NCBI GenBank assembly: GCA_004284765.1
Contig: NQJD01000038.1
Coordinates: forward strand, 1 to 23,259
Reading direction: 5' to 3'
Source: Candidatus Electronema aureum
GTDB taxonomy: Bacteria > Desulfobacterota > Desulfobulbia > Desulfobulbales > Desulfobulbaceae
DNA: 23,259 nucleotides
Shown here: piece by piece, positions 8,729 to 12,464 of the stretch
How the letters are laid out: each line of letters starts with the position of its first letter
How positions within the stretch are numbered: position 1 is the first letter of the stretch
Made by a program: the position numbers and the translations under genes
The notes under the pieces: model-generated
Databases searched by the model: none
Seen by the model: the letters and a program-made list of their open reading frames with translations, nothing else
Told to the model about the DNA's origin: nothing

Positions 8729-9103
8729 ATGAAAGACAGAAAAGAATACCAAAAGGAATACCTTAAAAAATGGAGAAAAGAAAATAAGGACATTCATATA
8801 TATTTTACACCAGAAGAATACAAATTTTTTGAGGAACTATCAAAAAAGTATGAAGTAAAAACAAGCTCACTTATAAAAACAATGGCAATTTCTCAGGCAA
8901 ACAAAACTCTTTGCTTGCCTAAAGAAATGCAAGAAAAACTAAACGAGTTCGTTTTTCTCATAAGAAACATAGCAAACAATGTGAACCAAATAGCCAGACA
9001 CTCCAACACCATTAAAACCTTAACCGATGAACACGGTTTATTATCCTACCTCAAACAGCTTGAAGAAGCCGTTAAAGAATATGTGAAAAAAGAAAACAAA
9101 TGA
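8729..9103 (+). CDS. mobC: MobC-type relaxosome accessory protein
   Basis: IRNIANNVNQIARHSN matches the MobC signature (NxNQiAr..N). The gene ends TGA (9101-9103), TTA, TAA (9107-9109). There is an ATGA overlap with the relaxase start. Confidence 0.85.
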   Translation: MKDRKEYQKEYLKKWRKENKDIHIYFTPEEYKFFEELSKKYEVKTSSLIKTMAISQANKTLCLPKEMQEKLNEFVFLIRNIANNVNQIARHSNTIKTLTDEHGLLSYLKQLEEAVKEYVKKENK

Positions 9104-10023
9104 TTATAAAATCAATGTCCAGAAAAGAGCCGAGCTTTGCCCAGCTCTCAAATTATATTTTCAAAGGAGCAGACAACAAATACACCTACACAAGAAACCT
9201 TTATGAAAGGGATACTGAAAGCATAACAAGAGAATTTGAAAAAAACTTTAAGCACCTAAAAAGGCAAAAAAACTCAAATGCAATTTACCACGAAATAATA
9301 TCTATCTCAAAAGCAAGCATTGATACAGAAAAACAAAAAGAAAAACTTTTGGAAATAGCTGGTGAATATGCGGAAATAAGGGCGAAAAATTGCCTTGTTT
9401 TCGGCTCCCTTCACGAAGCAGGCAACAACTTTCATTTTCATTTAATGATTAGTTCAAATGGGATCGAACAGAACAGAAATCACTACCTTTCAAAAAAACA
9501 ATTTGACGAAATAAAGAAGGGCTTAGAAAGGTATGTTTTGGAGAAATACCCTGAACTAGACCAAAAACGGGTTATGAACCAAGAAAGGAAAATAGAAGCC
9601 GTATCGCAAAAAGAATTTGAACTCAAAAAAAGAACTGGTGAGATAACAAAAAAAGAATCTATCCAATATCGATTGACTCAAATATTTAATAGATCATCCA
9701 CTAAAGAAATTTTTTTTACTAACCTTGAAAAAGATAAAATTCAAATTTATATCAGAGGAAACACCGTAGGTTTTATAGATTTGTCGGACGACAAGCAGAG
9801 GAAATATAGATTAAAAAAATTAGGATTATCCGAGGAATTTAATAAAATGAGTGAGGTGCTTGCTCGTGAAGTTCCTCACTGTCAGGAACCAGCAAGCAAG
9901 ACCTTTTCAAGGCAGGAAAAACAGGAACAGAAAAAAGAGGAAGCCAGACCGACAAAAGAACAAGAGGCTTTAGATGAACTGAAAAAAATAAGAGATAGTA
10001 AAATTAAAATCAAAAAGATGTGA
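9100..10023 (+). CDS. Relaxase/mobilization nuclease. It is 307 aa under the standard code and would extend to 10263 (387 aa) under code 25.
   Basis: An N-terminal Tyr region (LSNYIFKG) and a histidine triad HEAGNNFHFHLMIS. The TGA at 10021-10023 is in frame with the ORF at 10069-10263, with no intervening TAA/TAG. Confidence 0.85.
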   Translation: MIIKSMSRKEPSFAQLSNYIFKGADNKYTYTRNLYERDTESITREFEKNFKHLKRQKNSNAIYHEIISISKASIDTEKQKEKLLEIAGEYAEIRAKNCLVFGSLHEAGNNFHFHLMISSNGIEQNRNHYLSKKQFDEIKKGLERYVLEKYPELDQKRVMNQERKIEAVSQKEFELKKRTGEITKKESIQYRLTQIFNRSSTKEIFFTNLEKDKIQIYIRGNTVGFIDLSDDKQRKYRLKKLGLSEEFNKMSEVLAREVPHCQEPASKTFSRQEKQEQKKEEARPTKEQEALDELKKIRDSKIKIKKM

Positions 10024-10068: not shown

Positions 10069-10263
10069 GTGTTTGCTGGGATTAAAAGAATTTTAGGAGT
10101 AGATAGGTTGCTTGAAGCAGGAAAAAAAAATGAAAAACCTGAATGGGTCAGGGAAGACGGCACTATTGATAAAGAACAACAGGAGGAAGTCTTGAAGGAA
10201 TTAGAAGCCCAACGAGCTTTGAAAATGGGGAAAAATAAATCGGGATACAAAAAAAGCCTTTAG
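10069..10263 (+). CDS. Either a separate 64-aa ORF (GTG start) or the C-terminal extension of the relaxase
   Basis: Same frame as the relaxase. AAGGAGG lies about 10 nt upstream of the GTG at 10069. Stop TAG at 10261-10263 is embedded in an inverted repeat. Confidence 0.4.
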   Translation: MFAGIKRILGVDRLLEAGKKNEKPEWVREDGTIDKEQQEEVLKELEAQRALKMGKNKSGYKKSL

Positions 10264-10340: not shown

Positions 10341-11807
10341 ATGATAATTTTTAAATTAATCTTTGGCTGGATCATAGATATTCTCCTTACGGGAGGCAAA
10401 TATTTATTATACGGACGGATACTGAAAAATAAGACGGGTTCAAAAATACTTACCCCTAAAGAGATAAAAAGTTTTCTATCTCCAGCACACAAAGGGCTTT
10501 TAATTGATGGAGCCAAAAACCGACTTTCGGTTGCCGAGAGCTTTCAAAATGTTTGTTTTGTGGCAAGGGTAGGAGCAGGAAAAACCACTAAATATATTAT
10601 TCCAAATGTGCTTGATAAAGGCAGACAAAATGTTTCAATGGTGGTGAATGATCCTAAGGGTGAAGTCTATTCTCTAACCGCAGGATATTTACAAGCTAAC
10701 GGGTATAAAATTATAGTTTATAATCCACATAATCTTCTTAATTCTAATTTATTTAATCCTCTTTTAGAGGCAAAAAATCACATAGAACTCGAACAAATAG
10801 CAGAAACTTTAATTTGGATAGGAAACCCAGGAGATAAAGACCCATTTTGGAACAATGGAGCAAGTAGAATAATTTCAGTTTTATTAAAATGCCTTAGTTT
10901 TTCTAAAAATAAACAAAATTTCAATTTGCCTAATCTCTATTATCTTCTTCAAAATTTCGGAGAAATGGGGGAGGGGTTAGATAAGTGGATTTCTCGGAAT
11001 TGCTGGGATCCGACTTGCCCCAACGACAGGTATGTTTTAAACGAATGGAAAGGGGTTTTGACCGGCAACCAAGAAACCGTGCAAAGTTTTGTAGGGGTCT
11101 GTTTAACCTCTCTCAAAGCTCTTTCAAATAGAGACTTACAAGGATTTTTCAGCGATTCAGACTACAAACTTACAAATTTAAGGAAACAAAAAACAGCTAT
11201 ATTTTTCATCACACCACCTGAACACCAGCAATATTATTCATTTGTTACCAGCCTTTTTTTCCGTGCTGTTTTCAACGAATGTATGAGGGATCAACATTTA
11301 AGAGGGAAAAGCCTACCTGTATATATCCTATATGATGAGTTCGGCAATTCATATATCACCGATTTTGTTTCTGTGGCAAATACCATTAGAGGGTATGGTG
11401 TTTCTTTATCTATTGTTTTGCAATCAATTTCACAACTTGCTATGAAATACGGACAAAACACATCTGAAGCAATTCAAGGAGCTTTAAATACTAATATATG
11501 CCTAAGTTCTTCTGATCCTGTAACATCAAAATTCTTTTCTGAACTTTCTGGAAGGGTGAGAGAAAGGCAGGTCAGGGATATAGAAAAAAACATAGAAGAC
11601 TACAGGGAATACAACTTACTCAATACAGATGATGTAAGAACAATGGGACAGGATGAAGCCTTAATAATTTCTAAAAACCGCTATCCTGTAAGATTAAAAG
11701 TAGTTCCGTATTATAATAATAGAATTTTTAAAAAAGCATCTTTATTCCCGAAGCCTAATTTTTCTAATGATGAGAGAAAAATTAATGTTTCATTTGAACA
11801 GTTATAA
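10341..11807 (+). CDS. Type IV coupling protein (TraG/TraD/VirD4 family)
   Basis: Walker A VGAGKTT, Walker B-like VYILYDEFGN, one N-terminal hydrophobic segment. Stop is TAA. About 31 Gly codons by my count, none of them TGA. Confidence 0.9.
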   Translation: MIIFKLIFGWIIDILLTGGKYLLYGRILKNKTGSKILTPKEIKSFLSPAHKGLLIDGAKNRLSVAESFQNVCFVARVGAGKTTKYIIPNVLDKGRQNVSMVVNDPKGEVYSLTAGYLQANGYKIIVYNPHNLLNSNLFNPLLEAKNHIELEQIAETLIWIGNPGDKDPFWNNGASRIISVLLKCLSFSKNKQNFNLPNLYYLLQNFGEMGEGLDKWISRNCWDPTCPNDRYVLNEWKGVLTGNQETVQSFVGVCLTSLKALSNRDLQGFFSDSDYKLTNLRKQKTAIFFITPPEHQQYYSFVTSLFFRAVFNECMRDQHLRGKSLPVYILYDEFGNSYITDFVSVANTIRGYGVSLSIVLQSISQLAMKYGQNTSEAIQGALNTNICLSSSDPVTSKFFSELSGRVRERQVRDIEKNIEDYREYNLLNTDDVRTMGQDEALIISKNRYPVRLKVVPYYNNRIFKKASLFPKPNFSNDERKINVSFEQL

Positions 11808-12464
11808 ATGAATAACTTTGTGTTGTATCTAATAATTTTTTGTTTTGGGTATGTTGCTGGGAAAATTCTATCAAAATTGCATAGATTTTTCTTTCTTATA
11901 GGGTGTTTCCTGTTGATGCCTAAAATATATCAATACAGAAGCCAACATTTATTGATTGTTACTGTTGTTTTTATTCTCGGTGTTGCAAAAGGTTATAAGC
12001 TGTTTCCTAAATTTACAGAAATGCTGGAAGAAATAAAAATATCTATTCATCTTTTCTTTGCTAAGAGGAGAGAAATATCATACAGAACAGCAAAGGAAGA
12101 CTGGAAAGAACAAGAACACATAAATAGCATGAAAGCAGAGGAACTAAGGCTGAAAGAACAGGAGCTATACAAACAAGCCGAGGAAATCAAACGGCAGAAA
12201 CATCGTGCAGACGAGGACTTGAGGAAGGCACGGGAAAAGCAGGCAAAAAATACAAGCTATCCAAACACCTTGCAGGAAGCCTTTGAGGTTCTGGGAACCA
12301 GATCAGGGCTAACAGTCGAGGAATACAAAAGAATTTGGAAACAAGAGGCTTTGAAATATCACCCAGATAGAACAAAAGGGCTTGGTGAAAGATTGCAAAA
12401 ACAAGCGGAAAGTGAAATGAAATCAATAAATAAGGCTTGGGAGATTATAAAAAATAAAGTCTAA
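11808..12464 (+). CDS. Membrane-anchored J-domain (DnaJ-like) protein
   Basis: Two to three N-terminal hydrophobic helices, a charged coiled-coil region, and a C-terminal J-domain with KYHPDR (HPD motif) and flanking helices. The ATG immediately follows the coupling protein TAA. Confidence 0.8.
   Translation: MNNFVLYLIIFCFGYVAGKILSKLHRFFFLIGCFLLMPKIYQYRSQHLLIVTVVFILGVAKGYKLFPKFTEMLEEIKISIHLFFAKRREISYRTAKEDWKEQEHINSMKAEELRLKEQELYKQAEEIKRQKHRADEDLRKAREKQAKNTSYPNTLQEAFEVLGTRSGLTVEEYKRIWKQEALKYHPDRTKGLGERLQKQAESEMKSINKAWEIIKNKV

Follow-up and report, generated by a model that had tools for sequence, protein, structure and literature searches.

Type IV coupling proteins (T4CPs) devoid of a membrane domain pair with small membrane proteins, as TraJ of pIP501 does with TraI, and TraG-TraJ pairs (R27, IncHI1) are encoded side by side (PMC7434980). 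The locus analyzed here, carried by a 23,259-base contig of Candidatus Electronema aureum (hereafter the window, i.e., the whole stretch of DNA that was analyzed), resembles these systems in that a multi-helix membrane protein of ~200 aa is encoded by a gene adjoining that of a T4CP, which itself lacks a full membrane domain. However, the R27 and pIP501 partners are devoid of a J domain, whereas the protein encoded by the window (hereafter the J protein) carries one. Comparison of R27 TraJ (DUF4400) with the family of the J protein gave an hhalign probability of 7%, and no Pfam match to DUF4400 was obtained.

Another point of comparison is MobB of R1162/RSF1010, a small membrane-associated protein promoting relaxase transport. 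Furthermore, the window resembles the mobilizable plasmids of the CloDF13 type, which are small, have no mating-pair apparatus and encode a relaxase, an accessory protein and their own T4CP (PMC7434980). No J domain has been described in the CloDF13 or R1162/RSF1010 MobB systems, unlike in the cassette of the window.

Sec63, with BiP, and Pam18/Tim14, with mitochondrial Hsp70, are membrane-tethered J proteins of translocases. The likeness lies in a J domain fixed beside a translocation machine, where Hsp70 acts on the polypeptide in transit. However, homology to the protein of the window is confined to the J domain, and the J domains of Sec63 and Pam18/Tim14 are located on the exit side, where they help to pull, whereas that of the window would be on the cytoplasmic side, where the substrate enters, and its action would be limited to unfolding, holding or release. 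The J protein also resembles DjlA, a membrane-anchored J-domain partner of DnaK in proteobacteria, with its N-terminal anchor, linker, C-terminal J domain (cytoplasmic by prediction in the window protein) and extended segment after the HPD motif; this segment of the window protein, GLGERLQK, resembles that of E. coli DjlA. DjlA, however, is encoded by a chromosomal gene, has a single anchor helix and contains a TerB-like domain (Pfam DjlA_TM, TerB), whereas the window protein has three predicted helices and no TerB domain and is encoded in a putative plasmid mobilization operon. Work cited in PMC5825899 and PMC2938332 connects DjlA with the virulence of Legionella dumoffii and Vibrio tapetis.

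The mobilization cassette of the window

The window is the whole contig C38 of a 2.76-Mb metagenome-assembled genome that is 92% complete. It encodes Rep_3 initiators (two of them confirmed), a primase fragment, an H-NS-like protein, toxin-antitoxin pairs and a 2072-aa Rhs protein, and it looks like a mobilizable plasmid; its G+C content is 26-34% in the backbone and 48-55% in the Rhs core. Neither a VirB4 family member nor a second T4CP was found in this genome (G000), so that transfer would need a helper system. DnaK is encoded in the same genome.

The cassette consists of four genes of the forward strand, all complete under the standard code. The first one (8729..9103) encodes a 124-aa MobC/NikA-like relaxosome accessory protein (Pfam MobC, E 2e-6; NikA-like, E 5e-6), the second (9100..10023) a 307-aa relaxase (translation table 11) with a MobA/VirD2-like nuclease domain (PF03432, E 5.1e-8), the third (10341..11807) a 488-aa T4CP and the fourth (11808..12464; P0001) the J protein. 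The interval from the stop codon of the relaxase gene (TGA at 10021) to the start of the T4CP gene contains a 64-aa ORF (10069-10263); two small genes occupy this place in the plasmid of Desulfotalea psychrophila presented below. The sequence-only reading had placed the gene of a 218-aa protein directly behind that of a coupling protein, and both statements held: the upstream product is a VirD4-type T4CP (PF02534, E 7.8e-53, together with TrwB_AAD_bind and TraG-D_C), and translation of the ORF 11808-12464 yields 218 aa. The junction is also as it had described it, the TAA stop (11805-11807) being immediately followed by the ATG (11808-11810). Over positions 10341-12464, this TAA alone parts the T4CP and J genes (TAAATG), which share the same reading frame, and no recognisable Shine-Dalgarno sequence precedes the ATG of the J gene at this junction. 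This arrangement suggests termination-reinitiation coupling. Judged from the sequence, the J gene would thus be the fourth, translationally coupled gene of a mobilization cassette comprising MobC/NikA, relaxase, T4CP and J protein.

The J protein and its family

Membrane helices at the N-terminus of the J protein had been claimed from the letters alone, and they are predicted by both hydropathy and AlphaFold2 (AF2; 58 family sequences as input, mean pLDDT 86.9). The membrane region covers residues 2-63 (11811..11996, forward strand), with three helices in the AF2 model (residues 2-23, 26-42 and 47-63) and two hydrophobic windows in the hydropathy analysis (residues 3-24 and 47-67). The N-terminus carries no charge, while the loop K19-R26 contains three basic residues (K19, K23 and R26) plus H25. 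According to the positive-inside rule, an N-out, C-in orientation fits this charge pattern and would place the J domain in the cytoplasm.

The following region (residues 66-147; 12003..12248, forward strand) was delimited by AF2, conservation and heptad analysis. In the model it forms one long helix rich in E, K, R and Q, with a pLDDT of 88-97 at residues 91-140. L113, L120 and I127 are kept in close relatives, and the best heptad register is hydrophobic at only one position (L113, L120, I127, A134 and A141), the other one being polar. The description of this region as a highly charged coiled-coil therefore stands for the long charged helix, but with such a one-sided register the coiled coil is not established: a charged single helix or a rigid charged spacer is just as possible.

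The C-terminal part (residues 155-217; 12270..12458, forward strand) is a J domain according to Pfam, to profile matches in the PDB and to a fold search, in agreement with the canonical J domain containing ALKYHPDR that had been proposed. PF00226 (DnaJ) matches residues 158-217 above its cut-off (E 3.2e-8; 34 bits versus 27.8). ALKYHPDR corresponds to residues 181-188 of the 218-aa protein, and its HPD motif (H185-P186-D187) is encoded by nucleotides 12360-12368. HPD is invariant in 16 close relatives (44-71% identity), as is much of the J domain. A search of the PDB sequence set with the family profile retrieved J-domain chains only. The AF2 model shows helix I (residues 155-162), helix II (170-183), the HPD loop and helix III (194-217), with a pLDDT of 87-95. 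Among the matches listed by Foldseek in the PDB, all are J-domain proteins or J-domain-containing chains, with E-values of 0.05 or above because the J domain makes up little of the query; 5nro_B, the J domain of E. coli DnaJ bound to DnaK, superimposes on the model with an rmsd of 1.4 Å over 57 columns. DnaJ is the sole Pfam family matched by the J protein, and the Gly/Phe region, zinc finger and DnaJ C-terminal domain are absent. From its sequence and model, it would be a class III/C co-chaperone (J domain only), predicted to stimulate DnaK.

The family extends well beyond the window. A large protein collection contains 17 relatives (47-100% identity), two of them named, from a Candidatus Electrothrix genome, and when 1.84 billion representatives were searched with a profile, eight matches reached E<=1e-30 and 379 reached E<=1e-10. 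In about 45 clusters of 210-260 aa, the similarity starts at the first membrane helix and extends through the J domain. The 58-row family alignment shows a linker of 78-134 residues, of which ~63% are E, D, K, R or Q. HPD is present in 46 of the 58 rows; the 12 others, including the protein of the genome G362 discussed below, carry triplets such as HAD, HSD, HVD, HED, HPN, DPN, SPD, NPS, DPS and APD, which implies that activation of DnaK is not kept everywhere. The nearest clusters of the protein atlas are labelled "hypothetical protein". The ten clusters that were looked up are all located on short contigs (1-29 kb); where a source name was available, which was seldom, it was a DnaJ-domain annotation.

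Among the long matches of the profile search, no fusion of a T4CP with a J domain was found. Three candidates of 676-710 aa (P0070, P0105 and P0162) were rejected as they consist of an unrelated N-terminal region, devoid of any Pfam or T4CP domain, followed by membrane helices, and the other long matches are TerB-, TPR- or Mrr-J proteins. Multiple J domains also occur: P0028 is a 679-aa protein with six of them, and a 401-aa membrane protein (G056:C129; L011:907-2112), which is not encoded in a mobilization context, combines a linker rich in Glu, Arg and Gln with two tandem J domains of the same HPDR..GLGE type. Viral contigs gave no match for the J protein or the T4CP. A first pattern scan of representative genomes found nothing, and a second one retrieved only the contig L041, presented below, and unrelated J proteins. 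An 85-aa DnaJ-domain protein encoded by a Bacillus thuringiensis plasmid was discarded because its gene lies among hypothetical genes and is unrelated to transfer.

Conservation of the linkage between the T4CP and J genes

A survey of T4CP neighbourhoods revealed that the adjacency is not unique to this contig, since it is also found on plasmids and in metagenome loci. In total, the linkage was detected at seven T4CP loci (the window and six others) from two phyla, plus one unrelated relaxase operon. The metagenome locus L006 carries the whole cassette, with a T4CP and a J protein respectively 71% and 44% identical to those of the window, and L005 and L007 carry the T4CP-J junction. In these three loci, a GGAG is found and the J gene starts with a TTG overlapping the stop codon of the T4CP gene. 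The small plasmid NC_006140 of Desulfotalea psychrophila LSv54 (14.7 kb) encodes a MobC-like protein, a relaxase, two small proteins, a 488-aa T4CP and, after a gap of 37 nt, a "J domain-containing protein". On the plasmid NZ_CP083562 of Sulfitobacter sp. S223 (25.7 kb), the T4CP gene spans the record origin and shares an ATGA overlap with the start of a gene annotated as "DnaJ domain-containing protein". Finally, an integrated element from another family of the phylum (G362:C108) encodes MobC, a relaxase and a T4CP, with a J-like gene located 2 kb downstream on the same strand; its product (L092:6699-7490) carries APD instead of HPD. PF00226 is also passed by the proteins of Desulfotalea (36.2 bits), Sulfitobacter (33.8 bits) and G362 (36.5 bits).

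Some of these loci have peculiarities of their own. In L005 (600-675), L006 (9950-10020) and L007 (600-675), the TGA of the T4CP gene, which the TTG overlaps, is followed by an in-frame TAG (AAT TGA TAG ATG), which would stop these T4CPs one codon later if TGA encoded an amino acid. The J gene of L007 (631-1348) is split in two frames (631-1119 and 1154-1348), by a frameshift or an assembly error. The Sulfitobacter T4CP (NZ_CP083562.1; L046:5920-7623 continued in L047, minus strand) has 637 aa, with a 150-aa C-terminal extension, and is unannotated in PLSDB because its gene crosses the record origin. Its tail contains KKALLHHPDKK, which looks like helix II of a J domain followed by HPD; a J domain was not retained there, as the tail has no Pfam match and a BLAST E-value of 0.3.

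Both NC_006140 and NZ_CP083562 are complete circular plasmids from cultured isolates. Chance adjacency or an assembly artefact could be suspected in a metagenome-assembled contig with a backbone much richer in A+T than the Rhs core, but the same gene order on these two finished plasmids and on several independent metagenome contigs makes this explanation hardly credible.

In a T4CP search of PLSDB, these two plasmids were the closest plasmid relatives of the window (38% identity), while a tblastn search of the same database with the J protein of the window retrieved only mycoplasma dnaJ; they could be reached only through their T4CP because the J proteins have diverged too far. Pairwise identities of the T4CPs with that of the window range from 35 to 71% (five loci). 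The J protein is the fastest-diverging protein of the cassette, with 24-44% identity to that of the window in four of the five loci; the Sulfitobacter J protein has no significant BLASTP match with it, and the Desulfotalea one can still be aligned over its full length with the family profile (97% probability in hhalign). MobC of the window shows 20-57% identity overall to its counterparts (57% in L006, 49% in Desulfotalea and 32% in G362), and its relaxase is 30-53% identical to those of L006, the Desulfotalea plasmid, G362 and the Sulfitobacter plasmid. The pairwise comparison reveals a single cassette, with homologous MobC, relaxase and T4CP from one locus to the next. MOB-suite classes NC_006140.1 (L057) and NZ_CP083562.1 (L056) as "non-mobilizable" despite their MobC-like, relaxase and T4CP genes. 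The relaxases of both complete plasmids have no Pfam match, yet they are 30-52% identical to that of the window, and it is this divergence that would account for the call.

More distant T4CPs were found without a J gene. The genome G390 has three integrase-linked copies, with an integrase downstream and no member of the J family nearby, and the genes of the CD1115-family T4CPs of Firmicutes are followed by those of a small protein and then of TrbL.

The persistence of the linkage bears on another explanation, according to which the J protein would be a general membrane co-chaperone or a host-manipulation cargo comparable to DjlA (envelope stress, heat-shock modulation) that travels with mobilization genes. 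Its anchor-linker-J architecture is alike, and its best NCBIfam match is DjlA (NF006948; E 1.1e-10). However, this match concerns the C-terminal part only, at 41.6 bits versus a cut-off of 162, and the J protein has no TerB domain, so that its identification as DjlA was rejected. Furthermore, no defence-system model matches the J protein, and a linkage by start/stop overlap that outlasts BLAST-detectable similarity is not expected of a passenger gene. We consider such a cargo role very improbable.

The T4CPs of these loci share another feature. N-terminal hydropathy indicates that the canonical two-helix N-terminal membrane domain is absent from the T4CPs of all five lineages. The Walker A motif is located at residues 75-84 in the T4CPs of the window (GAGKT at residue 78), L006, Desulfotalea and Sulfitobacter and at residue ~95 in that of G362. 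The T4CPs of Desulfotalea, Sulfitobacter and G362 have no hydrophobic helix (maximum hydropathy of 0.2-0.6), and those of the window and L006 have one borderline hydrophobic stretch each, which in the window is the sole one and comprises residues 1-19. Since these T4CPs are devoid of the usual membrane domain, the membrane protein encoded downstream is their likely anchor or partner; the T4CP of the window, having one hydrophobic N-terminal stretch, may also anchor itself.

A second, independent association was found on L041, a 7.1-kb contig of the Desulfobulbaceae genome G035. Its genes are arranged in the order nikA (with an ATGA overlap), J gene, a gene encoding a 958-aa TraI-type relaxase unrelated to that of the window, and then genes encoding ParA and ParE. 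The 246-aa product of this J gene has an intact HPD and a J domain 69% identical to that of the window (hhalign, 71 aligned residues), and its membrane anchor is unrelated. No T4CP is encoded on this 7.1-kb contig.

Possible role of the J protein in conjugative mobilization

Overall, the explanation that we favor, to which we give an even chance, is that the membrane J protein partners a T4CP lacking its anchor and brings DnaK to the relaxosome or T4CP, where the relaxase would be remodelled or unfolded. The J protein would share the inner membrane with the anchor-less T4CP, like the partners of the R27 TraG-TraJ and pIP501 TraJ-TraI pairs, and its charged helix would hold the J domain ~10 nm off the membrane. 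In the structure of TrwB, the height of the T4CP cytoplasmic domain is about that of an 82-residue helix (~12 nm); the length of the charged helix is thus a geometric match to this domain, which is only a suggestion. At the T4CP site, the J domain would switch on the ATPase of the host DnaK, which would remodel the relaxosome or partly unfold and hold the relaxase, enabling the T4CP to deliver the complex of relaxase and DNA to a helper type IV secretion system. Several points count against this proposal: DnaK is a weak unfoldase, 12 of the 58 family rows have lost HPD, the T4CP of the window may anchor itself, and Rep_3 initiators, which offer another possible client, are encoded by each of the four T4CP-J plasmids with a known replicon (the window, L006, Desulfotalea and Sulfitobacter).

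The last point leads to an alternative in which the J protein serves replication or establishment by targeting DnaK to Rep_3 initiators and converting their dimers into active monomers. Members of Rep_3 are known clients of DnaK and DnaJ, and the host DnaJ/DnaK/GrpE monomerises P1 RepA and F RepE. However, the J gene is always located in the mobilization operon and never beside rep, activation of Rep needs no membrane anchoring, and no Rep3_N match was found in G035 (100% completeness), where the HPD of L041 is intact, nor in G362. Since the genome carrying L041 is devoid of Rep3_N, the common denominator of all loci is the relaxase operon and not the replicon, and we regard this alternative as improbable. 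Establishment in a new host had also been put forward by the sequence-only reading. In IncP/RP4, the relaxase operon is the last to enter the recipient, and by analogy the same would apply here if oriT is located upstream of mobC. For this reason, and because a polytopic membrane protein is unlikely to be itself transferred, establishment appears less likely than recruitment of DnaK to the T4CP or relaxosome.

Alternatively, the target of DnaK could be the T4CP rather than the relaxase substrate, with a part in the assembly, membrane docking, hexamer turnover or quality control of this anchor-less ATPase. The tight coupling of the T4CP and J genes and the missing membrane domain of the T4CP are in line with this idea, but the L041 operon, in which a J domain is encoded between nikA and the relaxase gene on a contig without T4CP, points to the relaxosome as the common partner, and we hold an action on the T4CP to be rather unlikely. 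Under the favored proposal of a J protein that brings DnaK to the relaxosome, its client would most likely be the relaxase or relaxosome, because L041 joins a J domain and a relaxase without any T4CP on the contig and because the relaxase has to be unfolded for its transfer; in the words of PMC5826034, "which enzyme/unfoldase is responsible ... remains unclear". Taken further, this reasoning would make Hsp70 (DnaK) a working part of the transfer machine of these mobilizable elements: recruited by the J subunit of the coupling-protein complex, it would unfold or release the relaxase where the latter enters the secretion pathway. We put this view forward tentatively and judge it possible rather than probable.

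Within the literature covered, J-domain proteins do not figure among the standard transfer components, in line with the sequence-only reading: full-text searches of the literature for J domains together with relaxases, coupling proteins or DnaK found no such report, and a 2025 review of T4SSs does not mention DnaK, DnaJ, Hsp70 or J-domain. What appears to be new here is a membrane partner of a coupling protein that carries a co-chaperone domain, and this J protein suggests how T4CPs devoid of a membrane domain are held at the membrane. The cassette can be approached by ordinary genetics, since two cultured hosts, Desulfotalea psychrophila LSv54 and Sulfitobacter sp. S223, carry it on complete plasmids. 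It should also be emphasized that current typing tools call such plasmids, which encode a relaxase and a T4CP, non-mobilizable. Conjugation spreads genes, including resistance genes, and the mechanism by which the relaxase loses its fold before entry into the type IV channel is recognized as an open question (PMC5826034). A conserved gene of a transfer operon whose sole recognisable activity is, by prediction, the switching of DnaK is a testable candidate for this unfolding step. If the proposed role is true, it would be, as far as could be found, the first dedicated link between Hsp70 and bacterial conjugation and would name a candidate for the relaxase unfoldase.
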